DNA from: Moorellales bacterium | GTDB lineage: Bacteria > Bacillota > DSM-521 > Neomoorellales > SLTJ01 | Length of the DNA stretch: 64,000 nt | Direction: 5' to 3' | Assembly (NCBI GenBank): GCA_049719955.1 | Contig: JBNARC010000001.1 | Span: 1,887 to 65,886 of the forward strand | In this document: positions 331 through 42,892 of the stretch, in pieces | Numbering within the stretch: position 1 is the stretch's first letter | Layout of the letters: every line of letters begins with the position of its first letter | Position numbers and translations under genes: made by a program | The notes under the pieces: model-generated | What the model was told of the DNA's origin: nothing | The model's input: only the letters and a program-made list of their open reading frames with translations | Database searches by the model: none

Positions 331-406
331 CGGTTTCCCTCCCTGCTACCTTTGTCCTCATCATATCATTACCGGCGGCGGCCGGTAAACGGGGTCGGCC
401 CCGCTC

Positions 407-552
407 TGAGTTATCCCCCCTCTCTTAAGTTGGCTGGCGGTACCGGGTGCTCCCCGTTCGTACTGTCACCTCGCCGACTATACTTGCGCTTGGGCCTTCG
501 CGCTACGGCGGGCTCCCCTGTACCGCCCGTGGGAAGGTGGCGATACGTCAGG
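407..552. repeat. Copy A (short, internally deleted) of an intergenic imperfect-palindrome repeat family
   Basis: It shares three elements with copies B and C: the arm CCCGTTCGTACTGTCACCTCGCCGAC, the GGCGGTACCGGG / GTACCGCC inverted segments, and the outer CTGAGTTAT...GATACGTCAG ends. The supplied ORF track shows the same spurious peptide (AGGTGCSP) across copies A and C. Confidence 0.7.
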
Positions 553-628
553 GCCCGCTTGGTTGGCTTTCGCCCGGTCGGCTGCTATAATTAGGTGAGA
601 CCGCTAGCCGGAGGAAAGGGGGGCCCTA

Positions 629-1185: not shown

Positions 1186-1737
1186 ATGGGGGGAAACAGC
1201 ATGGACCTGATGGCAGTGATCGCCCGTCGGCGGTCCATACGTCGTTTCCGGCCCGACCCGGTGGAGGCAGAAAAACTGGAGGCGGTACTGGAAGCGGCGC
1301 GCCTGGCTCCTTCTTGGAAAAACGGGCAGTGCTGGCGCTTTGTGGTGGTTGCCGACGAGAATACCCGGCGCGAGTTGGCCGAGGCCGTTCCCGCCCACAA
1401 TCCCGGTCGGGCTTCCTTATTGCAGGCTCCGGTGGCCGTAGTGGTGGGCGTGGATCCGGCCGAATCCGAGGAATGGGAAGGGCGCCCCTATCACTTCGTG
1501 GACGGAGCCATTGCTCTGGAGCACCTGGTGCTGGCGGCGGCTTCTCTGGGGCTGGGGACCTGTTGGCTGGGAATGATTAACGAGACTAAGGTGCGCTCCG
1601 TCTTGGGGATACCGCCGGAGATCCGGGTGCTGGCGATGACTCCCCTGGGATATCCGGACGAAGATCCCCGGCCCCGGCGCCGCAAATCGCGGGAAGAGAT
1701 CGTATACTACGACCGCTGGGGCGCAAGGCGGGTCTAG
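1186..1737 (+). CDS. Nitroreductase family protein
   Basis: Motifs RRSIRRF, APSWKNGQCWRFVVV and LGLGTCWLG are typical of the FMN nitroreductase fold. The start could be ATG 1186 or ATG 1201; both are in frame. The track start at 1105 overlaps the upstream gene. Confidence 0.8.
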   Translation: MGGNSMDLMAVIARRRSIRRFRPDPVEAEKLEAVLEAARLAPSWKNGQCWRFVVVADENTRRELAEAVPAHNPGRASLLQAPVAVVVGVDPAESEEWEGRPYHFVDGAIALEHLVLAAASLGLGTCWLGMINETKVRSVLGIPPEIRVLAMTPLGYPDEDPRPRRRKSREEIVYYDRWGARRV

Positions 1738-1792
1738 GTCTCGCTCGGCAAAACCGTCGCCGGCGGCAGGTGAGGGCGTGGGCCGGGAGAGG

Positions 1793-2731
1793 TTACGGCT
1801 CGGTGCTAGGCTCGGCAGGCTTTGACGGGGGTTGCCGAACGGAGTTGGCCACGGATAGGACTTGGTCCGGTTGTAGGTTGGATTCGATCTCCAGGAAGAG
1901 CTGATCCTGCTCCCAGCGCAGGCGTACTAGCTGTTCCTGTCGGCTCATTACCCCTACCGCCCGCTCCAGGGTTACGCTTTCCGCCGGCTCCAGTGTTCCT
2001 TCTAGCGGTCCGTTACTCACCCGGAGGTATAAGTAGTTTCTTTCGCCCCGGTAAACCAGGGTGGCCACCGTCTGCTGCTCCTGCGATTCTACCTTAAGAT
2101 CGGAAAAGACCAAACCCGCCGGGAGTTCGGTCGGCGAAGGCAGGGCAAAGGGAAGTTGGTCGCGCACTTCTTCCCGGGTGGGGGAAACCGAGGGCCGTGG
2201 CGGGGGCTGATGGTTGCGGGCCGAGGGCAGGCTGTGGGCCCGCAGGCGGTCCGCTTCCGCCGCGGCCGGTGCCGGTTCCTCGCCCTTAGCGTCCTCCGAG
2301 GCGGCCGTTTCCCCTGAACCAGCCAGCGTTTCGGCCGCCGCAGACGGTGGCGCGAGTTTTTCCTGCCGCGCCTCAGCTTGGGCCTCTTCCCTCTTGAAGG
2401 GGGTGGCCGATTCCGTGGCTTCCAAGGGCTCACGGTCGGCGAGTAGGGAAGGGGTGGAGCCATCGTTCGCCGCTGAGCCCGGGCCCAGGGCCACTTGAGG
2501 CGGCGCCACTCCCCTCCCGGCCCCCCAGGGACCCGTTAGCACTAGCGCCAGTACCGCCGCCGCCAGGCCGCAGGCCACCAACACCGGCAGGAAACGCCGC
2601 CGGGGCGGACGGGAGGATATCCGCGTCCTGATCCGGGCCCAAACCTCTTCCGCCGGGGGCAGGATCGCCTTCTCGGCTTCTTCTTGCAGAGCTTCTCTTA
2701 TCTGCCGGCCTAGGTCTTCCTCGTTCAGCAT
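1793..2731 (-). CDS. Putative membrane anti-sigma factor (single transmembrane segment, Pro/Ala-rich linker, C-terminal beta-rich domain)
   Basis: It lies immediately downstream of the ECF sigma gene and has one hydrophobic span (FLPVLVACGLAAAVLALVL). The RBS GGAGAGGAGG precedes the ATG. The assignment rests on position and topology only. Confidence 0.5.
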   Translation of the reverse strand: MLNEEDLGRQIREALQEEAEKAILPPAEEVWARIRTRISSRPPRRRFLPVLVACGLAAAVLALVLTGPWGAGRGVAPPQVALGPGSAANDGSTPSLLADREPLEATESATPFKREEAQAEARQEKLAPPSAAAETLAGSGETAASEDAKGEEPAPAAAEADRLRAHSLPSARNHQPPPRPSVSPTREEVRDQLPFALPSPTELPAGLVFSDLKVESQEQQTVATLVYRGERNYLYLRVSNGPLEGTLEPAESVTLERAVGVMSRQEQLVRLRWEQDQLFLEIESNLQPDQVLSVANSVRQPPSKPAEPSTEP

Positions 2732-2764
2732 GGCCGATTTCGTCCTCCTCTCCCAGCGAGGGCC

Positions 2765-3304
2765 TCACCGGTCGCCGGGGCCGCCGCCCAGGGCCAGTTG
2801 CAGGGCTCTTAGTCCTCGGTGCAGTCGGGATTTCACCGTCCCTAGCGGGCAGTCGAGGGCGGCGGCAATCTCCTTAAGATCCAGGTCGCAGTAAAAGCGC
2901 AACACTATTACTTGGCGGTACAACGGCTCCAGTTCCTCCAGTGCCCGGCGCAGCAAGGCGCGGGTTTCAGCCTGTTCTCCCGCCTCCGCCGGCAGGGGGA
3001 AGAGGCGGGGCTCGGCCGTGGGATCGGGCTGCGGCCGGCAGTTTCTTTCCTGGCGCAGCAGGTCCAACGCACACCGACCGGCTATTGCCCGAAGCCAGGA
3101 GGGGAACTTCTGCGGTTCTCTCAGGCTGGCCAGGCGGGTAAAGGCCTTAAAGAACGCCTCTTGCGTAGCCTCCTCCGCCAGCGGTGCCTGCCGGGTGATC
3201 AGGAAGGCTACCCGGTAAACCTCGGCGTAGAAGGTGGTGAAGAGGTATTGCTGGGCTTCCTGGTCCCCCTGCCGGGAGCGAGAAACCGCGTCTACGATAT
3301 CCAT
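2765..3304 (-). CDS. ECF-type RNA polymerase sigma-70 family factor
   Basis: It has a region-2-like segment (FYAEVYRVAFLITR...EEATQEAFFKAF) and a region-4 HTH (LDLKEIAAALDCPLGTVKSRLHRGLRAL). Confidence 0.85.
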   Translation of the reverse strand: MDIVDAVSRSRQGDQEAQQYLFTTFYAEVYRVAFLITRQAPLAEEATQEAFFKAFTRLASLREPQKFPSWLRAIAGRCALDLLRQERNCRPQPDPTAEPRLFPLPAEAGEQAETRALLRRALEELEPLYRQVIVLRFYCDLDLKEIAAALDCPLGTVKSRLHRGLRALQLALGGGPGDR

Positions 3305-3404
3305 GCCTTCGCAGCCCTTCCGAATAAAATGACGGCAGAAGGCGCCGTCTTGTTCCCCGTCCCTAAATTCGCCGAAAACGCACCGCCTTCCTGCCGGGTG
3401 CCGG

Positions 3405-3660
3405 ATTACTAGTACCGGGTTGGGAGGCGGTCCCGGGTTTCGCCTGAGTACATTGGCACCTCGCCGGGCACCGAACTTGGCGAGGGCAAGCCCGGAGGCG
3501 GGCGCCAGGCCTCAGGACGGCCGAAGCGGCGGGGCGCCAGGGACGGCGCCTAAGCCGCAAGCCCCCAGAGCACGACGCCCGAGCCCTAGTTCGGTCGGCG
3601 AGGTGACAGTACGAACGGGGAAACCCGGGACCGCCTGAGGGTAAACTGGTGGGACGCATC
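3405..3660. repeat. Copy B (full length, inverted relative to copy C) of the imperfect-palindrome repeat family
   Basis: GGCGGTCCCGGG...GCCTGAGTACATTGGCACCTCGCCGGGCACCGAAC on the left pairs with GTTCGGTCGGCGAGGTGACAGTACGAACGG...CCCGGGACCGCC on the right. It aligns to the reverse complement of copy C. The spurious peptide SSVGEVTVRTG appears in the ORF track for both B and C. Confidence 0.7.
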
Positions 3661-3756
3661 GGCCCGGCCGAGCCTTGACTCTCCCGGCGGTCGGAAGGCC
3701 AGGTGTCGTCCCTCTGGGAGTGGGCAGGACCCGGCTTCGGGACCCGGGTCGGCAGC

Positions 3757-10147: not shown

Positions 10148-10206
10148 GGCTCATCCCCTTTCCTTCCCGAAATTTGCACCACCGGTCTCTTCGAGGTGGC
10201 GGGTTG

Positions 10207-10445
10207 CTGACGTATACCGAGTTTCCCATAGGCGGTACCGGGCGCTTCCCGTTCGTACTGTCACCTCGCCGACCGAACTAGGCCTCGGCCTTCGTGCTAC
10301 GGCGGGCTCCCCTCGGCTTCGGCCATCCATAGCCTTCGGCCCACCTTCGCCCTCGTCCTCGCCAGGTTCGGTGCCCGCCGAGTGGCCAATGTACTCAGGC
10401 GAGCACCCGGTACCGCCAGCCAACTCAAGGATGGGGATACGTCAG
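10207..10445. repeat. Copy C (full length) of the imperfect-palindrome repeat family
   Basis: The ends are CTGACGTAT...ATACGTCAG. The left arm GGCGGTACCGGGCGCTTCCCGTTCGTACTGTCACCTCGCCGACCGAACT is an imperfect reverse complement of the right arm AGGTTCGGTGCCCGCCGAGTGGCCAATGTACTCAGGCGAGCACCCGGTACCGCC. Confidence 0.7.
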
Positions 10446-10600
10446 GGCGGCTCGGCCGCCTGGGGCGGCGCCTCCTCGGTTCCTTGGGACGTAATTTCGT
10501 CTTCCCTCGCAATTCTCCTGTTCTCACTTGGCTGCCAATTCCTGCTTTACAAAGGCTTTGACCCCTGATAAGATATTTTTCGATTACGGGGGGTGGCAGG

Positions 10601-13706: not shown

Positions 13707-14659
13707 AGCGCTGGATAGCGCCTTTGGCGGCGGTGGCGGCCTTCGCCCTGCTGCTCTACTACGTCGTAGGGCTGGAAAAGCCCAAGTCACCGACAGAAGA
13801 GCAGCCCCAGAGCGTTTCCGTGCTTACCTTTGAGGCGGAGAAGGCCGACCGGGTGGAGATTCAGGGTCCGGACCGGCGGTTTTCTCTGGTAAAGAAGCCG
13901 GAGGAGGGGTTTACCTGGTGGCTGGAACCGGAGCACCTCCCGGGCAACGGCAGCCGGGTGGAATCGCTGTTGCTGGTCCTGGCCGACCTTAAGGCCACGC
14001 CCCTGGAGGCGCCGCCTCCGGCCGAAACCGTGGGGCTGGAGCGCCCGACCTGGAGGGTAGACGTTTACCGGGGCCAAGGGCGTTTGGCGCGCCTGGAGGT
14101 GGGAGATAGGGTACCGGTTACGCGTCTGGGCGAGGAAGGATCGTATTATGCCCGCGCCAACGGGCAGGCACCGGTATTCACGGTTTCCGAGGGTTTACTG
14201 GAGCAGGTGCGGGGAGATTTGGCCAGCTGGCGCGAACGGTTCCTGAGTGACGTTCCCACCCCCAAGGTGGTACGGGTGGAAGTGGTGGCGGCGGATTTCC
14301 GGCTGGCGGCGCGTCGGGAAGGGGAACAGTGGAAGCGTCTGGAGCCCGGCGCGGGGCAGCCGGAGGCGGATAAGGTGCGCGACCTGGTTCGGAAGGTGGC
14401 CTTCCTGGAGGCGGAGGAATTCGTCACCGATGCACCCACCCCGAAGCAACTGGCCTCCTGGGGGCTGGACCGACCCTGGCTGCGGGCGGTGGTGGCCACC
14501 GATGATGAGCCACCCCTGGTGCGGGAGGTTCTGGTGGGAGGGAAGGTGCCGGACCAGAAAAGGTACTACGCCCGGCTGGCCGACCGCCCCTGGATTTACC
14601 AGGTGGACCTTCAGGCGGCCGAGGATCTGCTCAAAGCGGCCAAGGAGTTGGGTTCGTAG
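13703..14659 (+). CDS. DUF4340-like secreted/membrane-anchored protein
   Basis: It has an N-terminal hydrophobic anchor (WIAPLAAVAAFALLLYYVV). The preferred start is GTG 13703, 8 nt after AAGGAGG and overlapping the upstream stop as GTGA. The track start is 13682. The family call comes from context and recall. Confidence 0.5.
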   Translation: MKRWIAPLAAVAAFALLLYYVVGLEKPKSPTEEQPQSVSVLTFEAEKADRVEIQGPDRRFSLVKKPEEGFTWWLEPEHLPGNGSRVESLLLVLADLKATPLEAPPPAETVGLERPTWRVDVYRGQGRLARLEVGDRVPVTRLGEEGSYYARANGQAPVFTVSEGLLEQVRGDLASWRERFLSDVPTPKVVRVEVVAADFRLAARREGEQWKRLEPGAGQPEADKVRDLVRKVAFLEAEEFVTDAPTPKQLASWGLDRPWLRAVVATDDEPPLVREVLVGGKVPDQKRYYARLADRPWIYQVDLQAAEDLLKAAKELGS

Positions 14660-17692: not shown

Positions 17693-17788
17693 CGATTTCG
17701 CCCAGGGCAAACCGGTCGAAAGGCCGGGACGCAAAGCTACGGGTCTAAGGCCTCATGTGGGGCTATGATCGCCGGGCTGCCGAAATCG
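17693..17788 (+). promoter_or_regulatory. c-di-GMP-I (GEMM-I) riboswitch aptamer
   Basis: CAGGGCAAACCGGUCGAAAGGCCGGGACGCAAAGCUACGGGUCUAAGGCC matches the conserved GEMM-I core as in Vibrio Vc2: AGGGCAAAC, a GAAA tetraloop hairpin, GACGCAAAGC and CGG..CUAA. The closing helix is CGATTTCG (17693-17700) paired with CGAAATCG (17781-17788). Confidence 0.85.
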
Positions 17789-26961: not shown

Positions 26962-27052
26962 TGCCTCGGCTAGACGGAGCGGCGGAGAGGTTTCGCGTCT
27001 TCACGCGGAGTAGTTCAGAGGTTCTGCGGTCGGCAGAGGGGTGCCGGAGTCT

Positions 27053-30000
27053 ATGCGGAGGTACGGGCGCGCCCGGTCAAAGGCCCCGGGCGCGGTACTG
27101 CTTTCACTTCTGTTGATTAATTTGCTGCTTTTGCCCGCACCGCCGGCGCGGGCACAAGACTATACCCCCCAAGTTACCGGTATTAGCCCCGACCAAGGCG
27201 GCATGGGCGGCGGCTACTTTATGACCATCACCGGCTCAGGCTTCGCCGCCGAAGCCCAGGGCCAGGTGGAGGTCGCCATCGGCGGGGTGGCCGCCCGGGT
27301 GGTGGCGCGTAGCGAGACCGAGCTCAAAGTGGAGGTGCCTCCCCGCGATCCCCTGCCTGCGGCGCCGGTACCGGTGGTAGTAGCCAACGTGATTGGCGGC
27401 CAGCGTTATGTAGCGGAGGACCCACCCCTCTTTACCTACCTGCCCGGCCCCATCGTGGACGCCTTGGTGCCTAACTTCGGCAGTAGTGAGGGAGGAGCGG
27501 CAACGGGGCGGGTAACCTTAGTCTTGGGCAAGAATTTTACCCTCACCGGATACGACGGTTTGGAGGTGCGCTTCGGAGAGGGAGAGGCCGCAACCCCGGC
27601 TGAGGTCCTGGACAGGCAGTCTACGTTTCTAAGAGTATATCACCCGCCCGGGGCTTATACCGGCCTTCCGGTGGCGGTGACGGTCCGGCTGTCCGGCTCC
27701 GGAGTAGTACCGGTAGAGACCCGGCTGAACAACGCCTTCATCTACGCCGTGGGCTCCAGCAATCCCCGGATAGTCTCGGTTTCGCCCAACGTCCTACCCA
27801 GCACCGGCGGGGAAATAATGGTCGGCGGCCAGGACTTCCGTTCCGAGACGGAAGCCGACGGCTTAACCCCGCGGCTGGCGGCCCTCTATCTGGTGCGGCC
27901 GGGTTATCAGTATGCGGCCGAGGTCTTGCGCCTGCGGTGGGACGAGATCCGCGCTCGGGTGCCGGCGCTGCCGGCGGGAGTTTACGACCTGAAAGTGGTA
28001 AACCCGGACGGCCGGCAGGCGGTCTTGAGCGCGGCGGTTACTATCAAGGCCGCGGAACAGGCCCTACGTCTGGTGAGCATCACTCCAAACCGGGGCAGCG
28101 TGGAGGGTGGGGTACCGGTCACCCTTAAGGTGGTTAACCTTCCTCCGGGCTGGCAGTCGGTGGGGCTAGAGATCGGCGGTATTCCCGCTTCAGAAGTAAA
28201 CGTAAAGGACGCCAACACCATTGAGGCCAGGGTGCCGGAGCGAATGGCGCCGGGCGCCTACGATGTGGCCCTAAGGGTTACCTACCAAGAAGAGGGCCAA
28301 ATTCGGGAGCAGGTGTCGGTGCTGCCGCAGGGTTTCACCTACGTTATTCCCACTAGTTCGCCTTCGGTAACCTTCTTGGCACCTAATTCGGGGCCTCTGG
28401 CCGGGGGCACCGAGGTTACCATAAATGGCAGCGACTTTCGGGCGCCCCAGGAGGGGCAGTCCTTGTACGTGTTTTTCGGGCTGCGGCTGGCCAGAAGCGT
28501 AAGGGTGGTGGACGCTTCCACTCTGGTGGCCGTTATTCCCGAGGCCGATGCCCCCGGGGCGGTAGATGTGACTGTGGTCAACCCCGACGGCGGCACGGCG
28601 GTACTGCCCCTAGGATTTACCTACCTGGGTAATCCCCCTTACCTGACCAGTATCACCCCGGCCTTCGGCACCAAAGGAACGCCGGTAGTGATTGCCGCGG
28701 CCAACCTCACCGTGAAGGGCACGGCGGCGGAGATCGGCGAAATCCGCTATGACGCGTTGGGAAACCCGATAGAATGGTTTGAGAATCTGCCCATTCAGAG
28801 ACTAGAGGAGTTGTCTGCCGGGGCCTGGCGGATTTACGCCGAAATCCCGGCTTTGGTACCCGGGCCGAAGCTGGTGCGGGTTAGGACCCCTTACGGCGTA
28901 TCGAACTACCTGGATTTTCAGTACCTGCCGGCCACCTACCCGGCACCGGTAGTGACCAGTGTGGATCCGGATAAGGGCCCGGCCCGCGGTGGGGTGGCGT
29001 TGGCGGTATACGGTGAGAACTTCCAGAGCGGAGCCCGGGTTTATCTAGGGGATAAAGAGCTTAACGGTGCGGTGGTGGAAAGCGTCCACAAGATAAGCGG
29101 ACGGACTCCGGCGGGACTACTACCAGGGGCTAGCTATCCCGTACGGGTGGTCAACCCTGACGGCCGGGAGGGGACGCTGGCCGACGCCTTCTACGTCTAT
29201 AGCGAGCCGCAGGTAACCCAGGTTACCCCGGCCACGGGCAGCGTGGACGGCGGAAACATCATCACCGTCAAAGGTCAAGAGTTCTACCCCGGCGCTCTGG
29301 TCAGGCTGGAGTGGAAGGCGATAGACGAATCTGGCCAGACGGTAACAGGGTTTGTCTACGCCAAGGAGGTAACCGTGCGCGGTACCACCGAGCTGCGCTT
29401 CCGGCTGCCTCCGGCTCAGGACGCCTCCGGTCCGCCTTTAGTGCTCAAACCCGGGGAGGAGTGCCAGGTTGATCTGGTGGTGATCAACCGGGACGGTGGC
29501 AGCTTCACCCTGGTCGACGGCTTTACCTACCGCGGGCCTCAGGTTACTCCCTCCATCGCCTCCGTTACCCCGCCCTGGGGGCCCACGGAGGGCGGCATAG
29601 AAATACTGGTTTCCGGCTCCGGCTTCTTGCCCGGCGCCCGGGTTTTCATCGGCTGGGAAGCGGCCAAGGTGGTGCAGGTAGGGCCCACCCTCATCCGGGC
29701 GGTAATCCCGGCCCAGCCGGAGGGGAAGTACGATGTGTCGGTGATGAACGACCTTGACGGCGGCGCGGCGGTTCTCCGTAGCGGTTTCGAGTACCGCCAG
29801 CCCCGAACCCAGCCCAAGATAACTTCCATCTATCCCAACCGGGGACCCAACTACCGGTCTACGTTGGTCACCCTCCGGGGTGAGAACTTCTGGCCGGGCG
29901 CGGAGGTGTTTTTCGGCTCCAGCGTGGCCAAGGCCGTGTACTACGTGGATACCACCGTGCTCAAGGTTTACACCCCCGAGGTGCCCGACTACGTGGGGCC

Positions 30001-32563
30001 GGTAGACGTGCGCCTGGTGGACCCTTACGGCGGGGTGGCCCTGGTGAGGAACGGCTTCACCTTTACCCAACCGGCCGCCGGGTACCTTCCGGTGATCGAG
30101 GCCCTCTCTCCCCGGGAAGGCTCTACTCAGGGCGGCACCCCGGTGGTTATTACCGGGCGGAACTTCTTCCAGGGAGCGGAGGTGTACTTCGACGGCCTGC
30201 CCTCACCTTCGGTGAAGGTTCTGGACACCGGTACGGTAGTGGCAGAATCCCCGCCGCACGCCCCGGGAGCGGTGGAGGTCACCCTGGTGAACTGGGATGG
30301 GGGCGCGGCTACTTATCACTGCTTCATCTACCGCCAGCCGGGAACGCCTCCGGAAATCCTCAAGGTCGATCCATCTGTGGGCCGGGCGAGGGAGGAAACT
30401 CCGGTCACCATCACCGGGCGTAACTTCCAGCCCGGTGCCAAGGTCTATTTCGGTCATACCGAAGCCGTTGAGGGGGAGGTAAAGGATTACTACACCATCG
30501 CCGCCACCGCTCCGGCTCTGCCTGCGGGTAAGGTGGACGTGCGGGTGGTCAATCCGGACTTCGGCGAGGCGGTGCTCCGGAACGGCTTCACCTACCAGTC
30601 ATCGGTGCCCAAGATTACCGCGGTGAACCCGAGCCAGGGACGGAAGGAAGGAGGCTACACGGTAGCCATCCTGGGCGAGGACTTCCGGCCCCCGTCAGAG
30701 CAAGCGGCTCTGCGGGTTTTCTTCGGAACCCAAGAGGTGAGTCCGGCTGACATTACCTACCAAGACGAAGGCACGGTGGCGGTGAAGGTGCCGCCCTCCT
30801 CCCGCGTAGGCCCGGTGGACGTACGCCTGATTAACCCCGACGGGGCCGAGGCGGTGCTGAAGAACGGTTTCATGTACACCAGCCCCGCCTCCGACCCGGA
30901 AGTTACCGGCGTGACGCCGGATAAAGGTCCTACCACCGGCGGGATATGGGTGACCATCAGCGGGAGCGATCTGCGGGAGGAGGCGCGGGTATACTTCGGC
31001 AGCCTGGAGGCGCTGAAAGTGCGCTTCGTGGACAACCAGACCCTTTTGGCCTTATTGCCCCCTCAGCCGGTGGGGCCGGTAGCGGTGACGGTGGTAAACT
31101 ACGACGGCGGCACCGCCACTAAGGAAGCCGCCTTTATCTACGTAATTCCGGAGTCTAGCCCGCGCATCGACCGGGTGGTGCCCAACAAAGGGCCGCACGT
31201 GGGAGGGACCAGTATTACCATTTACGGCCTGGACTTTCGCAGTGGAGCGACGGTGTACATCGACGGCGCGGCCGCCACCCAGGTGCAGGTGAAAAGCTAC
31301 AAGGAGATCGCGGCCGTAGCCCCGCCCGGCCGGCCCGGGGCGCGGGACGTTACCGTGATAAACCCCGACCAGGGCACCTATACCGCTTCGGGCGCTTTTA
31401 CCTACGTGGAGGTCAAGGTGCCCAGCATCAGCAAGGTAGAGCCGGACCGGGGGCCGAAGCAGGGCGGCACGGCCATTACCATCACCGGCACCAATTTTGC
31501 CTCCGGCGCCAAGGTCTACATCGGCGGCAACGAAGCCTCGGAAGTTAAGGTAACCGGCGGGACCCAGATCAGCGCTGTCGCCCCGGCGGGCGAGCAGGGC
31601 TGGCGGGAACTTAAGGTGGTCAACCTCGACGGCGGCTTTGCCAGCCTGGCCAAGGGTTTCCTTTATCTGGGGCCGCCGGGCGAGCCCGGCTGGCTTTCTG
31701 CCCGTCCGGTGGACGAGACTACCGTACGCCTGGACTGGGAAGAGGTAGAGTTTGCCTCGGCCTACGAGATTTTCGTAGCCCGGGACCCCGGCGGTCCCTA
31801 TGCCTTCCTGGACCGGACCATCGCCACCACCTACTACGCCACCGGTCTGGTAGCCGACCAGGACTATTTCTTCCGGGTGCGGGCGGTAAACGACCTCGGG
31901 CTTTCGGTGTTCTCCGGCGAGGCTTGGTCCCGGACCGAGGAGAAAGAAGAAGAGGCGGTCAGCGGAGAATTGGTGCGCGCGGTAAAGGGTAACCACCTTT
32001 ACGTGACCATCCCCAGTTCCTCGGCCTGGCGGAGCCTAGGGTCTACGCTGGATTTGACCGCCGGCGCTTACGCCGGCGTCCGGGGGGTCAGCCTGCGGGT
32101 GCCGGTCGACGTGGCCTTAAGTAGCGCCCGGACCCTGACGGTGGCGGGCTACCGGTTCAAACTAGAAATACCCGCGGGAGGGTTCCGGCCGGTCGAAGCC
32201 CGACGCCTGACGGCTTCGGAGCGCCAAAGGTCGGCGCTGGTGCTGCGGGTGGAAGAAGTGCCGGCCGCGGAAGCAGGGGAGCTGGCAAGGGCGGCGCCGG
32301 GGCGGGTAGTGTCCCGCTTGTGGCGCTTGGAGATGCGGCTGGAAATCGCGGGTCAAAACCGGCCGATCTTGAACCTCGATAACCAAGTCTTGGTTACTAT
32401 AACTTTTGATCCGGCTCTGGCCGGCTCCGCGGCGGTAGGGCTCTACCGTTACCGGCCGGACCGGGGGTGGGAGCGGCTGGGCGGCCAATCCCTTGCCGGG
32501 TGGCCGCAGGTGGGGGGAGCCAGCGCTACTACCGGCGTATTCGCCGCCGTGGCCGACCGCTAA
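27053..32563 (+). CDS. Giant secreted surface protein: signal peptide, 16 tandem IPT/TIG-like Ig repeats, one FN3-like module, and an unassigned C-terminal domain of about 230 aa
   Basis: It has a Sec-type leader (LLSLLLINLLLLPAPPARA/QD). Sixteen repeats of about 85-110 aa follow the pattern P.I.S..P..GP..GG..VTI.G..F..GA.V.FG...A..V......I.A..P....G.VDV.V.NPDG....L..GFTY. The FN3-like segment reads TVRLDWEEV...YEIFVAR...YFFRVRAVN. The start is ATG 27053 or the track GTG 27041. Confidence 0.85.
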   Translation: MRRYGRARSKAPGAVLLSLLLINLLLLPAPPARAQDYTPQVTGISPDQGGMGGGYFMTITGSGFAAEAQGQVEVAIGGVAARVVARSETELKVEVPPRDPLPAAPVPVVVANVIGGQRYVAEDPPLFTYLPGPIVDALVPNFGSSEGGAATGRVTLVLGKNFTLTGYDGLEVRFGEGEAATPAEVLDRQSTFLRVYHPPGAYTGLPVAVTVRLSGSGVVPVETRLNNAFIYAVGSSNPRIVSVSPNVLPSTGGEIMVGGQDFRSETEADGLTPRLAALYLVRPGYQYAAEVLRLRWDEIRARVPALPAGVYDLKVVNPDGRQAVLSAAVTIKAAEQALRLVSITPNRGSVEGGVPVTLKVVNLPPGWQSVGLEIGGIPASEVNVKDANTIEARVPERMAPGAYDVALRVTYQEEGQIREQVSVLPQGFTYVIPTSSPSVTFLAPNSGPLAGGTEVTINGSDFRAPQEGQSLYVFFGLRLARSVRVVDASTLVAVIPEADAPGAVDVTVVNPDGGTAVLPLGFTYLGNPPYLTSITPAFGTKGTPVVIAAANLTVKGTAAEIGEIRYDALGNPIEWFENLPIQRLEELSAGAWRIYAEIPALVPGPKLVRVRTPYGVSNYLDFQYLPATYPAPVVTSVDPDKGPARGGVALAVYGENFQSGARVYLGDKELNGAVVESVHKISGRTPAGLLPGASYPVRVVNPDGREGTLADAFYVYSEPQVTQVTPATGSVDGGNIITVKGQEFYPGALVRLEWKAIDESGQTVTGFVYAKEVTVRGTTELRFRLPPAQDASGPPLVLKPGEECQVDLVVINRDGGSFTLVDGFTYRGPQVTPSIASVTPPWGPTEGGIEILVSGSGFLPGARVFIGWEAAKVVQVGPTLIRAVIPAQPEGKYDVSVMNDLDGGAAVLRSGFEYRQPRTQPKITSIYPNRGPNYRSTLVTLRGENFWPGAEVFFGSSVAKAVYYVDTTVLKVYTPEVPDYVGPVDVRLVDPYGGVALVRNGFTFTQPAAGYLPVIEALSPREGSTQGGTPVVITGRNFFQGAEVYFDGLPSPSVKVLDTGTVVAESPPHAPGAVEVTLVNWDGGAATYHCFIYRQPGTPPEILKVDPSVGRAREETPVTITGRNFQPGAKVYFGHTEAVEGEVKDYYTIAATAPALPAGKVDVRVVNPDFGEAVLRNGFTYQSSVPKITAVNPSQGRKEGGYTVAILGEDFRPPSEQAALRVFFGTQEVSPADITYQDEGTVAVKVPPSSRVGPVDVRLINPDGAEAVLKNGFMYTSPASDPEVTGVTPDKGPTTGGIWVTISGSDLREEARVYFGSLEALKVRFVDNQTLLALLPPQPVGPVAVTVVNYDGGTATKEAAFIYVIPESSPRIDRVVPNKGPHVGGTSITIYGLDFRSGATVYIDGAAATQVQVKSYKEIAAVAPPGRPGARDVTVINPDQGTYTASGAFTYVEVKVPSISKVEPDRGPKQGGTAITITGTNFASGAKVYIGGNEASEVKVTGGTQISAVAPAGEQGWRELKVVNLDGGFASLAKGFLYLGPPGEPGWLSARPVDETTVRLDWEEVEFASAYEIFVARDPGGPYAFLDRTIATTYYATGLVADQDYFFRVRAVNDLGLSVFSGEAWSRTEEKEEEAVSGELVRAVKGNHLYVTIPSSSAWRSLGSTLDLTAGAYAGVRGVSLRVPVDVALSSARTLTVAGYRFKLEIPAGGFRPVEARRLTASERQRSALVLRVEEVPAAEAGELARAAPGRVVSRLWRLEMRLEIAGQNRPILNLDNQVLVTITFDPALAGSAAVGLYRYRPDRGWERLGGQSLAGWPQVGGASATTGVFAAVADR

Positions 32564-32572
32564 GGGGAGGGG

Positions 32573-35095
32573 GTGGGCTCGGTGAGAAGCGAGAGCCCTA
32601 TCTGGTGCCGCTCAAAGCCAACTGGAGATACGCCAGAGGCGACCGCAATCGGCCGGCGCGGCCGCAGCGGACCGAAGGGACGGTGCGTCGGCCTGATTGT
32701 CTTCGTGGCTCTGGTTTTGTGGGGCTTGTCGCTGTCCAATCCGGGTTTAGCGGCGGCGCAGGGCCAGCGCTACACCGGCTGGGCGGGAGCGGCCCGAGTG
32801 GCCTCCCGCCTAAACTACGCCGACCTTTCCGGCCATTGGGCCAAAGAAGCCATCCTGAGGGTAGCGGCCCTGGGGGTTTTGACCGCTACCGGAGACCGGT
32901 TTCGGCCTCAGGCCGCACTCACCCGAGAGGAGATCCTGGCCGCCCTGTTGGCTTTATCGGGGAATGGAAACAACGGAACTACGGTACTGGACCGGGCGGA
33001 GGGGGCGGGCCTGGTAAACCGGGAAGAACGCGCCAGGCTTGAGGGCGCGCTTTCGGCGCCGGCCGAGCGGCAGGAGGTGGCCGCCTGGCTGGCCCGGGCG
33101 GCGGGGCTGGTAGAGGCCACGGGGGCGGGGAACGTACGTGTGGCCGCCTTCGGCGACGCGGGCAAGGTGCGGCCTGAGTACCGCGGGTTCATAGAGGCTC
33201 TACTGGAAAAGGGGTGGCTGGCGGGCCGGGGAGGGCGGCTGGCGCCTACGGCCGCCGTCACCCGGGCGGAAGCGGCCAGCCTCCTTTACCGGGCTTTACC
33301 CGAGGTCTTGCCCCGGCAGGGTTGGCTGGTGTTCCAAGGGATAGTTGTCGGAAGGGAAGAGGCGCGACTGAGTCAGGGGCTGCGGCTCACTTTTGTGGTG
33401 CTTACCACCTCCGGTCAGAGCGTGGAACTGATGGCCGGTCCGGGCGCCGGTACCGCCTGGGGCCCCGACTGGCTTACCATAGCCGGGGGCCGGGTTTCTA
33501 CCGCCGGCGCTCTGGCTTCCGGCCAAGCGGTGCGGGTATGGGTTAACCCGCCCACGGTGGTGATGGTGGAGGTCTTATCCTCCCAGGCCCAGAGCCGCCG
33601 GGCGGTGTTAGAGGCGGTGAACTCCACCGCCGGAGAAATAACCGTGATAGTTGGCGGCCAGCGGACGGTTTTGGGCCTTGCCCCGGGGGTCAAGGTTACC
33701 GTAGCGGGCCAGCCGGCGCGGCCTGCCGACCTTTTGCCCGGGCAAGAGGTAACATTATCCCTGCGGGCGGGCCTGGTGGAGCAGGTGGCGGCGGAGCTTC
33801 CGCCCGTGGATTTGCCAGCTTATGCCCAGACGCCAGCCCGGGTGGTAACCGGTTACCTGGCCGGACGGGAGGGCACCAACCTGCGGGTAACCTTGACGGG
33901 CGGAGGCGAGGAAACCTTTGCCCTTACCTCGGTAACGGTAATCGTTTCCGGCAGCCGTACCCTTTCCGCTTCCGACCTGCGGCCGGGCGACCGGGTGCGG
34001 CTAACCGTTTTCGGCGATTCTTCCGGAGTGATTTCCCGGGTAGAAGTGGCCGCCGAGTATCCGCGGGAGGAACTCTGGTGCGGCCGGCTGGTGCGGGTGC
34101 TGGTGCCGGAGCGAGCGGTGCTGGTTTCCCAGCCCCGACGGCTCTATTTCGGCCGCTGGCGTTTCGAGGAAGGGCAGCGCGCCTTCACCCTGGCGGCAGA
34201 GGCCGGGTTTTACCTGGGTTCCCGGACGGTGAGTCTGGAGGAACTGGCCGGTCAAACCGGAGGGCAGGTTTTCCTCAGCCTGAGCCGGGCTTTCGGGCGG
34301 AAAGAAGTGGCCTGGCTGGCGGTGGAAGAAGGTGAGCCCTGGATCTACCAGGACCGTCTGGCCGACTGGAACCCGGGGTGGCGGAAGCTAGCCTTGAGCG
34401 GCGGCACTGGCCTGGTCTTGGCCGAGGGAGCGAGAGTGCTGCGGGGCGGCCGGGTGGTGGACCCGTCGGATCTGGAGGCCGGGCGGCCGGTAGTGGCGGT
34501 AGCGGCAGGGGACACCGGTCTCTTCGTGGAGCAGCCGGAGTACTATCCTCCTGCCTGGAGCTTCTTCTGCGGGACGCTACGGCGCTTGGAGGAGAAAAAG
34601 CTGGTTCTTTACCGCTGGCGCCGGTACGACGGCGACTACTGGAGCGCCACTTCCTATCAGGAGAAAGAACTAACCTTGTCGGCCAGCACCGTGGCTCTGG
34701 ACGGTACTAAGGAAACGCCGGTACTGCTCGACCTTCACACCTTCCTAGAGAGTCGCTATACCGATGCCTTCGTGGGCCGGCAGGTCTACCTGGTGGCGGA
34801 CGGAGAGGGTAGAGTGGTGGCTTTAGCCTTGCGGGGGGAAGAGCGCGGGCCGGAGGTAGCCGCTCTGGGGACGGTCCGGGAAGGGACGGACGGCCGGCGC
34901 CGCCTGGAAGAGGTGCTGGCGTGGAGTCCGGAGTACCGGTCCTGGAGAGAACTGGGAACTACGCTTACTCTTGATTTCTCCCGAGCCTTGGTATTTCGAG
35001 GTGGTACTTGGGTGGGTCCGGCCGGCCTCACCGAGGGCAGTCAGATTTATTTGCTGCACGACTACCAGGAGGCGTTGGCAGTTTTCCTGCAGTAA
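32573..35095 (+). CDS. SLH-domain cell-wall protein (N-terminal SLH region plus a C-terminal region of about 600 aa of unknown fold)
   Basis: It has a hydrophobic leader (VGLIVFVALVLWGLSL) and SLH-like segments (YADLSGHWAKEAILRVAALGVL...FRPQAALTREE and FGDAGKVRPEYRGFIEALLEKGWLAG...AAVTRAEAASLLYRAL). The start is 9 nt after the giant gene stop, with GGGGAGGGGG between them. Confidence 0.7.
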   Translation: MGSVRSESPIWCRSKPTGDTPEATAIGRRGRSGPKGRCVGLIVFVALVLWGLSLSNPGLAAAQGQRYTGWAGAARVASRLNYADLSGHWAKEAILRVAALGVLTATGDRFRPQAALTREEILAALLALSGNGNNGTTVLDRAEGAGLVNREERARLEGALSAPAERQEVAAWLARAAGLVEATGAGNVRVAAFGDAGKVRPEYRGFIEALLEKGWLAGRGGRLAPTAAVTRAEAASLLYRALPEVLPRQGWLVFQGIVVGREEARLSQGLRLTFVVLTTSGQSVELMAGPGAGTAWGPDWLTIAGGRVSTAGALASGQAVRVWVNPPTVVMVEVLSSQAQSRRAVLEAVNSTAGEITVIVGGQRTVLGLAPGVKVTVAGQPARPADLLPGQEVTLSLRAGLVEQVAAELPPVDLPAYAQTPARVVTGYLAGREGTNLRVTLTGGGEETFALTSVTVIVSGSRTLSASDLRPGDRVRLTVFGDSSGVISRVEVAAEYPREELWCGRLVRVLVPERAVLVSQPRRLYFGRWRFEEGQRAFTLAAEAGFYLGSRTVSLEELAGQTGGQVFLSLSRAFGRKEVAWLAVEEGEPWIYQDRLADWNPGWRKLALSGGTGLVLAEGARVLRGGRVVDPSDLEAGRPVVAVAAGDTGLFVEQPEYYPPAWSFFCGTLRRLEEKKLVLYRWRRYDGDYWSATSYQEKELTLSASTVALDGTKETPVLLDLHTFLESRYTDAFVGRQVYLVADGEGRVVALALRGEERGPEVAALGTVREGTDGRRRLEEVLAWSPEYRSWRELGTTLTLDFSRALVFRGGTWVGPAGLTEGSQIYLLHDYQEALAVFLQ

Positions 35096-35118
35096 CTCCA
35101 ATTAGGGGGAGCGGTTCC

Positions 35119-36663
35119 ATGCGGGTAGGGCGGGCGCGGTTGGGAGCGATTCTGCTGCTGGCAGCGTGGCTGGCAATGGCGGTTTGGCCTCGGCCGGCAC
35201 TGGCGGGGGGAGAAGAGCGGCTGGGGGGAGGCATAGGGGTCGGAAGCGAGTATAAAGAGCTTTTTGTTTTCGCCGGCCGGCCGGTGGTGCTAACCGGCCA
35301 GGCGAAGGTGAGCGCCAGTAGTGGCAGCAACGGTAAGGCTCAGGTGCGGGTGAGCCATAACCTCAAGAACGAGGCCAGCCAGGTCACCCTCACCCGCAGC
35401 TTATCTCTGGCCGGGGAAGAAAAGGAAGCCCTGGACGGCCGCCAACTGGTCACCAGCCTTACGGCCACTGCCTTCACGGAAAGCATCCGAGCGGGAAATC
35501 TCCGCTACACCCTCCGTCGTGGTCAACTCTCCTATACCCGGCTTACCGACCGGGCGGGAGGGGTGAACTACTTCACCAGTAACTGGAGCGGTACTAAGGT
35601 CTACGATTTTAACGGCAACCGCGGCACCCTTACCGTACAGATGTGGGGCCGGGGCATAGGCTACGAGCATGCTTGGGGCACCACTGAAACCCAGCATCTG
35701 GATCTGGTGTTGGATTTCGAAGGCCAGGTAGAAGAGCGGACCGCCGGGCGCCAGGTGACCGCCTATCCGGTGCAGTGGAGCGGTTCCGTCTCCCTGGATC
35801 TCACCTATACCCGTTGGCGGCGATTGGATTACCTGGAGAATGAAGCGGTGCCCATCAGTTTTGCCGGCGGCTATCTGGAAAGCCGGGGAGAGCAGGCTAC
35901 CCTGAAATATGAGGTAGACCTGCCGGTGCTAGATTCTTTGGGCCGGGTGGTGGCCGGAGGGCGGGTGCGGAACCAGGGCACCCTGGGACTGGAGTCCTCT
36001 CCTACTTACGCCCGGCTGCCGGTGCCGGTGCTGCGGGACCTGGAAGGGCACTGGTCCTGGCGAGAGGTCTTGCGGCTGGCCAGTCTGGGGGTATTTGCCG
36101 CCGGCGAGTATTTCGGGCCGGAACTGCCCATCACCCGAGGTGACTTCAGCTTAGCCTTGGCCCGGCTGCTTGAGTTGGAGCCCTCCCCTCAGCCGGCCGT
36201 ACCGGGCCTGGCCGGCTTGGCTCTGGCGAGCGGCCGATCCAGCCAGAGCTCTCCCTCTTCGCCTGCGTACCTGGACGTCCCGGAGGACAGCCCCTACTAT
36301 GGTGCGGTAGAGGCTCTTCGGCAGCGGCAGGTGCTGGCGGATAATAGCCTCTACTTCCGGCCCCAGGAAGGAATGACTCGGGCCGAAGCGGTGGCCCTGG
36401 TAGTGAGGGCCCTGGGCCTGGAAAGCCTGGCCGCCGCAGTAGTTCAGACCCCTTTCCAGGACGACCAAGCCATTCCTGCCGGTTGGAAGCGCGCGGTTTG
36501 GGTGGCGGAGCGTCTGGGACTGGTGGGGGGTACCTCCGGCGGCTACTTTCAGCCCCAGCGCCGCCTCACCCGGGGGGAAGCGGCCGCCCTGTTTAACCGC
36601 ACTCTAAGCTATCTTCAGGAGGGCCTGCGTCGGGACTACCAGAACTTGGTCTGGTTCCGTTAG
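35119..36663 (+). CDS. SLH-domain cell-wall protein (N-terminal beta-rich domain of about 300 aa plus three C-terminal SLH repeats)
   Basis: The signal peptide is MRVGRARLGAILLLAAWLAMAVWPRPALA. The three SLH-like repeats are LRDLEGHWSWREVLRLASLGVF...ITRGDFSLALARLL, YLDVPEDSPYYGAVEALRQRQVL...MTRAEAVALVVRAL and FQDDQAIPAGWKRAVWVAERLGLV...LTRGEAAALFNRTL. ATG 35119 follows GGGGGAG. Confidence 0.7.
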   Translation: MRVGRARLGAILLLAAWLAMAVWPRPALAGGEERLGGGIGVGSEYKELFVFAGRPVVLTGQAKVSASSGSNGKAQVRVSHNLKNEASQVTLTRSLSLAGEEKEALDGRQLVTSLTATAFTESIRAGNLRYTLRRGQLSYTRLTDRAGGVNYFTSNWSGTKVYDFNGNRGTLTVQMWGRGIGYEHAWGTTETQHLDLVLDFEGQVEERTAGRQVTAYPVQWSGSVSLDLTYTRWRRLDYLENEAVPISFAGGYLESRGEQATLKYEVDLPVLDSLGRVVAGGRVRNQGTLGLESSPTYARLPVPVLRDLEGHWSWREVLRLASLGVFAAGEYFGPELPITRGDFSLALARLLELEPSPQPAVPGLAGLALASGRSSQSSPSSPAYLDVPEDSPYYGAVEALRQRQVLADNSLYFRPQEGMTRAEAVALVVRALGLESLAAAVVQTPFQDDQAIPAGWKRAVWVAERLGLVGGTSGGYFQPQRRLTRGEAAALFNRTLSYLQEGLRRDYQNLVWFR

Positions 36664-41785: not shown

Positions 41786-41886
41786 GGCATTCACCGCTAA
41801 GGGCAAACTGCTCGAAAGGGCAGGGCGCAAAGCTTCGGGTCTAAGGCCCCTGCGGGGCTAAGACTGCCGGGTTGCCGGGGAATGGC
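41786..41886 (+). promoter_or_regulatory. c-di-GMP-I (GEMM-I) riboswitch aptamer upstream of the flgB operon
   Basis: UAAGGGCAAACUGCUCGAAAGGGCAGGGCGCAAAGCUUCGGGUCUAAGGCCCCUGCGGGGCUAAG shares the same conserved core as the copy at 17693. The P1-like pairing is CATTC.CCG (41888-41896) with CGG.GAATG (41876-41884). Confidence 0.8.
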
Positions 41887-42815: not shown

Positions 42816-42892
42816 AGGTTAGGAGGAGTGGCTGGCGGTACCGCCTGGGGGAAACCGGTGATACAACGGGAGAACGGAAGAGGTGAGCCCAA

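Follow-up and report, generated by a model that had tools for sequence, protein, structure and literature searches.

Transposition of IS10 and Tn10 relies on a DDE transposase, proceeds by cut-and-paste through hairpins at the element ends and inserts the element at a 9-bp staggered cut. Among the other small repeats of bacterial genomes, ERIC/IRU, Correia/NEMIS and RUP are imperfect palindromes of 100-150 bp that are intergenic or 3'-untranslated and often co-transcribed, and REPs are 20-40-bp units that have neither terminal inverted repeats nor target duplications. IS110 and IS200/IS605 elements are not known to make 9-bp duplications. In the IS4 family, every subgroup is marked by a conserved terminal signature of its own, and family members generate target duplications of about 10 bp (PMC2266710). 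Bacterial MITEs are defined as small, non-coding, intergenic elements with inverted repeats and target duplications, which can form a long hairpin and are presumed to be mobilised in trans (PMC5896051, PMC3852290), a definition that the repeats described here match. We have analysed a family of such repeats in a 64-kb stretch of DNA (the window, which here always means this whole stretch), and conclude that they are very probably non-autonomous MITEs of about 274 bp, derived from and mobilised in trans by an insertion sequence of the IS10 subgroup (IS4 family, DDE transposase). This reading is based on their IS10-type terminal inverted repeats (TIRs), on 9-bp target duplications and on the presence or absence of copies at orthologous sites in related genomes, in elements that are also small, dispersed and devoid of conserved coding capacity.

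Three copies, A, B and C, were located in the window with a repeat finder, blastn and an nhmmer profile, with E-values from 1e-21 to 1e-70 (Table 1). The long blocks of near-identical sequence reported in a preliminary description of this DNA are indeed present: the 25-mer CCCGTTCGTACTGTCACCTCGCCGA has exactly three matches in the window (453, +; 3595, -; 10248, +) and none in shuffled versions of it, GCCTGAGTACATTGGC is common to copies B and C, and a 26-nt block is identical in all three. The coordinates first given for copy C stand, and those of A and B have been corrected to the boundaries listed in Table 1, that of copy B at 3398, its right terminus, coinciding exactly with an indel boundary relative to the related contig L064. 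As had been claimed, all copies lie between called genes (gene calls of contig JBNARZ010000001.1, assembly GCA_049721505.1). Copy A sits within a divergent gene pair and is flanked by two divergent promoter-like sites (389-360 on the - strand and 563-591 on the + strand), and copy C separates a glycosyltransferase gene (-) from an ABC ATPase gene (+). Copy B, an old and immobile copy, has pgpA and an ECF sigma-factor gene as neighbours, both on the - strand; it falls after the pgpA stop codon and ahead of a terminator-like hairpin (3349-3331), and is therefore probably part of the pgpA 3' untranslated region. A fourth stretch, between flgC-like and fliE-like genes, consists of the left-end region of the element and about 12 nt of its inner right end, joined at a single GGCGGTACCGCC palindrome; from its sequence we tentatively take it for an end-only relic (relic D), the match being statistically weak. 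Between window positions 1 and 18800, the assembly GCA_049721505.1 shows 69 single-base differences in about 18,800, clustered around 13768-14143, three of which fall within copy C (10243, 10336 and 10433).

Table 1. Coordinates of the repeat copies, their termini and flanks, and of other features noted in the window
Feature	Position	Strand	Sequence	Remarks
Copy A	406-551	+		146 bp derivative; both termini, inverted interior, centre and right arm deleted; nhmmer E = 9.6e-21
Copy A termini			CTGAGTTATCCCC and reverse complement of CTGACGTATCGCC	
Copy A left 9-bp flank	397-405		GGCCCCGCT	6/9 vs right flank ungapped, 8/9 with one indel
Copy A right 9-bp flank	552-560		GGCCCGCTT	
Copy B	3398-3661	-		about 264 bp; full-length body, decayed termini; nhmmer E = 3.8e-70
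Segment from copy B to pgpA stop	3662-3756			about 95 nt, G+C-rich, no counterpart in L064; GGGACCCGG/CCGGGTCCC-type inverted repeat
Copy C	10207-10445	+		239 bp; complete, both termini, 25-nt internal deletion; nhmmer E = 2.9e-68
Copy C left terminus	10207-10219		CTGACGTATACCG	
Copy C right terminus	10433-10445		reverse complement of CTGACGTATCCCC	
Copy C left 9-bp flank	10198-10206		GGCGGGTTG	decayed target-site duplication, 7/9 identical to right flank
Copy C right 9-bp flank	10446-10454		GGCGGCTCG	
c-di-GMP-I-type riboswitch aptamer	17697-17785	+		Rfam RF03167, 72.8 bits; just upstream of a FapA-domain gene
TIG/IPT and S-layer-homology genes	27041-36663			1840-aa protein with at least 11 TIG/IPT domains, then two SLH-domain (S-layer-homology) proteins; flagellar gene clusters on both sides
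c-di-GMP-I-type riboswitch aptamer	41792-41879	+		Rfam RF01051, 80.9 bits; about 1 kb upstream of the flagellar-cluster flgC-like and fliE-like genes
Possible relic D	42825-42869	-		45 bp; blastn E = 0.014 and 0.048 (two colinear matches); nhmmer E = 0.13

The sure copies are confined to the first 10.5 kb of the window, the remaining 53 kb and 8.5 kb of flanking sequence holding none, a clustering that would suit a local segmental duplication, with the copies as three paralogous pieces of one region. The preliminary description would have fallen back on this reading had there been these three copies alone; it is hardly credible now. An exact 21-mer scan of JGI metagenomes identified six more copies, one each on the short contigs L003-L008, and a profile search added another in the MAG of a sister species (L064), so that seven further copies occur in unrelated loci on other contigs. 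The copies have defined termini and target duplications, the flanks of A, B and C share no similarity, and relatives have empty sites, all of which refutes a segmental duplication. In all, 11 copies are known, 6 of them ascertained through one exact 21-mer; they occupy ten distinct loci with differing housekeeping neighbours.

Alignment of these copies, which range from 146 to 276 bp, gives a full-length element of about 274 bp, represented by L005 and L008. The centre, previously thought to vary between copies, is conserved across the family, and copy C merely lacks 25 nt of it; the missing nucleotides lay between direct repeats of CCTCGG, found on either side of a small central hairpin. Copy A has a more complex history. 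Its left end is the reverse complement of the right end of C and its right end that of the left end of C, whereas its interior matches the left arm of C in forward orientation; as read from its sequence, the interior of copy A would therefore have been flipped across the 17-bp inverted repeat GGCGGTACCGGGTGCTC, after which most of the right half was deleted. No reading frame is open in all copies, and indel lengths are not divisible by three. To catch other copies that might have been miscalled as ORFs, the six translations of the element were used as protein queries, which returned no match. The novelty of the sequence family, proposed from the start, holds in the representative-genome, viral, plasmid and phage collections: among 185,579 species-representative genomes, an exact 20-mer had 0 matches, so neither the species of the window nor any carrier is among these representatives; three scans of viral contigs gave chance matches or none; and a full copy queried by blastn (distant mode) matched nothing in the plasmid and phage collections. 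Our literature search found nothing on this element family or on MITEs in Moorella. The sequence family is thus undescribed; it has so far been seen in three metagenomes and in two uncultured Clostridia that are close relatives, the nearest named genome being a 'Moorellales' MAG.

The termini of the element read CTGA(G/C)(T/G)TATCCCC, which is the CTGAnnnATCCCC signature of the IS10 subgroup. The ends of L005 are CTGAGTTATCCCCAC and, read inward, CTGACGTATCCCCAC, and these ends recur in L008, L007, A and C; over positions 1-13, the signature is present with 0-2 mismatches at 5/5 left and 4/4 right ends that are still recognisable. For comparison, we read the ends of five IS10-subgroup elements off their sequence records and located the inverted repeats there. 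IS10/ISVsa5 of plasmid R100 has CTGATGAATCCCC on the left and CTGAGAGATCCCC on the right; the corresponding ends are CTGAAGAATCCCC and CTGAAGGATCCCC in IS10A, CTGAGGAATCCCC and CTGAGGGATCCCC in ISSfl1, CTGAGGTATCCCC and again CTGAGGGATCCCC in ISEc29, and CTAAAGTATCCCC and CTAAGGGATCCCC in an unnamed Pseudoalteromonas relative. CTGAnnnATCCCC is found at both ends of the four named elements, the Pseudoalteromonas relative having CTAA for CTGA, and the left end of ISEc29 is identical to that of L007 in 14/15 bases. The transposases of these elements are 35-100% identical to that of IS10, and since the signature persists in relatives down to 35% identity, it is a property of the IS10 subgroup. Only the terminal 13-20 bp serve as functional TIRs, and the term, as applied to transposase substrates, does not cover the long arms. 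The earlier argument, from differing centres in B and C to selection on the arms as TIRs, is wrong in detail, this difference being the 25-nt deletion in C. In the old copies B and L003, column identity at the termini has dropped to 16-50%, compared with 80-90% in the arms. A TIR-like 13-mer in the related contig L066 was dropped as a chance match inside an HTH gene.

Target-site duplications, whose search had been suggested at the outset, were found at several copies. L005 has the perfect 9-bp duplication CAGGCTCCG on both sides (chance 7.5e-6 at its base composition). The flanks of copy C agree at 7/9 positions (chance probability of 7/9 or better about 0.002), and those of copy A at 6/9 (P about 0.015). 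L008 taken alone shows 3/9, that is, no duplication, which we put down to a rearrangement at this copy: ACTCTAGCC survives as the left flank in L008 and as the right flank in L064, and together they reconstruct a perfect 9-bp duplication, with a 7-nt deletion across the left junction of L064 and a different right neighbour in L008. The flanks of the copies are G+C-rich 9-mers and not TA, and membership of the IS630/Tc1-type MITEs (e.g. Correia) was rejected on this account; ISSfl1 is flanked by a 9-bp duplication in its own record as well. On the larB side, L008:568-843 and L064:2770-3042 represent one and the same MITE insertion, their flank CCGCTCGGCCGTCAAGGCACTCTAG being identical; the other flank differs, with cobU in L008 and a nitroreductase gene in L064, and a genome rearrangement must therefore have had its break point at or in the element.

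Related genomes were compared through the IorA-like gene between copies B and C, for which a protein search found orthologues at 89, 85, 83 and 75% identity on contigs that share synteny with the initial 19 kb of the window. Over a total of about 100 kb, the profile recovered a single copy from them, the full-length one of L064 (E = 1e-82), which lies between a nitroreductase gene and larB; its position is a 59-nt spacer in L067, and the window lacks this copy. Site A is empty in three relatives, where the spacer measures 168 nt (L064), 122 nt (L067) and 96 nt (L068); both flanks are recognisable, with a GTAAAC motif on the left and a TTGGCT...TATAAT promoter-like site on the right. At site B, L064 and L065 retain only a remnant of about 20 nt of the left subterminal region of the element (AGAGGTAAACGGGTAAGGCA, L064:6724-6743 and its equivalent in L065), which by its sequence appears to be an end-only deletion product similar in kind to relic D, and the more distant L068 has a 51-nt spacer and no remnant. 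The insertion of copy B must therefore be older than the divergence of the two closest species, in keeping with the decay of its termini. None of the relatives that cover site C (L064, L065, L066 and L068) has a copy there, L067 ending upstream, and their spacer is too diverged to place the exact empty site. Of the empty sites that the preliminary description had hoped for, that of A was thus obtained in three relatives, that of B in one relative next to two remnants, and that of C as a copy-free region. In the same relatives, larB- and larC-like genes (AIRC, Ni_insertion) lie between the nitroreductase and ECF sigma-factor genes, and the genome of the window lacks both; this variable segment corresponds to window 1737-2765, L064:2766-6049, L067:3709-6663 and L068:4035-7428, with the MITE of L064 at one of its edges.

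The body of the element is a long imperfect palindrome, and copy C is predicted to fold from either strand, as had been proposed (-104.6 kcal/mol and z = -3.9 for the + strand, -120.1 and z = -4.6 for the - strand); a full-length copy folded as DNA has z = -8.35. The paired arms, initially put at about 70 nt, measure about 100 nt and form 71 pairs, of which 68 are Watson-Crick in L005. In the six near-complete copies, 92.8% of the cells of this consensus hairpin are paired, against 35-44% in slid controls, and compensatory double changes affect 6 pairs versus 3.1 +/- 1.2 in shuffles, a number reached in 10/500; counted by cell there are 8 versus 3.4, reached in 1/500. For instance, GGCGGTACCGGG/CCCGGTACCGCC has become GGTCCC/GGGACC in B and GGTAGC/GCTACC in L003. 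The covariation check thus gave a modest signal from few sequences, which is the only hint of constraint on the hairpin.

These data raise the question of whether the repeats are structured non-coding RNA genes or cis-acting hairpins, such as mRNA 3'-end stabilisers or attenuators, whose transposon-like ends are incidental. The very stable folding, well above shuffled controls, the pairing and its compensatory changes all speak for such a role, as do the location of copy B between the pgpA stop and a terminator-like site, the several metagenome copies that abut the 3' ends of genes, and the body of the old copies, better conserved than their termini. Against it, almost all pairs are Watson-Crick and G.U mismatches are as rare as A.C, so that neither strand is favoured; the copies point either way with respect to the adjacent genes; and no consensus of a promoter or terminator was found inside them, such sites lying outside. 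Syntenic relatives lack the element at the same sites and have their neighbouring genes intact, and the body of copy B diverges by about 15%, which, given an orthologous spacer identity of about 78%, is close to the neutral decay expected since the species split. As the preliminary description had it, no known RNA family is matched: Rfam returned nothing at gathering thresholds on any window copy, its sole match to a copy at E <= 10 was a chance-level sodF sRNA (21.6 bits against a gathering score of 46), and at E <= 1 there was nothing on the six metagenome copies. The RNA reading is accordingly quite improbable in our judgement, and of the two descriptions offered earlier, MITE-like or long-hairpin RNA, the first is borne out by the IS10-type TIRs, the 9-bp duplications and the presence/absence pattern, while specific support for the second is lacking.

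Two observations are nonetheless not predicted by a purely selfish element: the compensatory excess, and the greater divergence of termini than of bodies in the old copies. The latter may reflect gene conversion among copies that seldom extends to their edges, end damage suffered when a copy became immobile, or weak selection for the body. It is conceivable, though unlikely, that co-option followed insertion, the palindromic body being kept since then as a functional RNA or DNA hairpin that might, for instance, stabilise the 3' ends of upstream mRNAs such as that of pgpA, or act as a site of recombination or cruciform formation. If true, co-option would explain the well-paired bodies with decayed ends in B, L003 and L004, the pair-restoring changes above expectation and the 26-nt block identical in A, B and C. 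For the copies in the window, we have seen no evidence of any service to the host.

The palindromic architecture and intergenic location would also suit a REP/BIME-type or other palindrome with another mobilising enzyme, such as a Y1 transposase of the RAYT type or an IS110-family recombinase, and an IS110-family transposase gene does abut a truncated copy in L004. This L004 segment (1516-3091) holds a gene with PF01548 and PF02371 domains (ORF 1623-2864, - strand), the MITE copy is cut off after GCCAATGTACT on the IS110-facing side, and GAAAACGGAT is found in inverted orientation near both ends of the presumed IS110-type element, the contig ending before the other junction; from its sequence, this looks like an IS110-type element inserted into a MITE. 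Truncation on the IS110-facing side is what such an insertion into the copy would leave, and guide-like complementarity between the non-coding ends of the IS110 element and our element does not exceed 7 nt, which is the chance level. With termini that match IS10 and duplications of 9 bp, mobilisation by either of these enzymes is very improbable. Membership of the RAYT-mobilised REP/BIME class was rejected for the unit of about 274 bp, its IS10-type ends and its 9-bp duplications.

The IS10-type MITE reading can be followed through to a mechanism by analogy with IS10/Tn10. A transposase encoded elsewhere in the genome would bind the terminal 13 bp or so, excise the element by cut-and-paste via hairpin intermediates at its ends, and integrate it at a 9-bp staggered cut. 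No transposase domain was detected in called genes or in ORFs of at least 250 aa in the window and 8.5 kb of flanks, in agreement with what had been noted for the window, and no cognate DDE (PF01609-type) transposase with matching ends was found in the window and its flanks or in the approximately 100 kb of relatives' loci. The suggested search for an insertion sequence with matching TIRs has therefore succeeded in part, in that elements of the IS10 subgroup share the end signature and the cognate one is absent from the window and 8.5 kb around it. The 71-pair body would not be required for the transposition chemistry, and its main visible effect is instability: loss of the segment between the short direct repeats around the central hairpin (copy C), an interior flip across the 17-bp inverted repeat (copy A), and reduction to the ends alone (relic D and, in L064, site B). 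If one may speculate, the long palindrome probably goes back to a fragment near one end that was duplicated in inverse orientation.

These findings have consequences for the uncultured, Moorellales-related lineage that carries the element. In annotation, recognising palindromes of about 150-275 bp as IS10-type MITEs avoids calling them riboswitches, small RNAs or promoters, and the copies flag likely assembly break points and rearrangement sites, one of them already lying at a synteny break. They also add high-GC, probably thermophilic Clostridia to the known hosts of IS10-like mobilisation, and predict that an IS10-subgroup transposase is, or recently was, active in that lineage. The derivative copies, moreover, form a small natural series of palindrome rearrangements, comprising a deletion, a flip and an end-only remnant. 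Beyond annotation, host range and palindrome instability, this is an ordinary kind of bacterial mobile-element family.

In comparison with the systems described so far, the element shows both similarities and differences: (i) With IS10/Tn10 and the IS10 subgroup (IS10A, ISSfl1, ISEc29) it shares CTGAnnnATCCCC at both ends and the 9-bp target duplication. However, it has no transposase gene and measures 274 bp instead of about 1.3 kb, its interior is a long palindrome of unrelated sequence, its termini lack a GATC (dam) site, and it resides in an uncultured, high-GC, Moorellales-related member of the Clostridia instead of a proteobacterium. (ii) Its palindrome-driven rearrangements resemble the 'nearly precise excision' of Tn10, which is also promoted by structure. 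(iii) Among bacterial MITEs generally it is a new sequence family, and its palindrome spans the whole body rather than the ends alone. (iv) Like ERIC/IRU, Correia/NEMIS and RUP, it occurs in size variants produced by internal deletion or insertion and folds in either orientation, but those repeats have other termini, short TA-type duplications or none, belong with other IS families and show no sequence similarity to it. (v) The MIC231 elements of IS231, also of the IS4 family, are likewise non-autonomous, with IS4-family ends and a cognate transposase acting in trans; they carry passenger genes between IS231-type ends, whereas the element described here has no gene and ends of the IS10 type.
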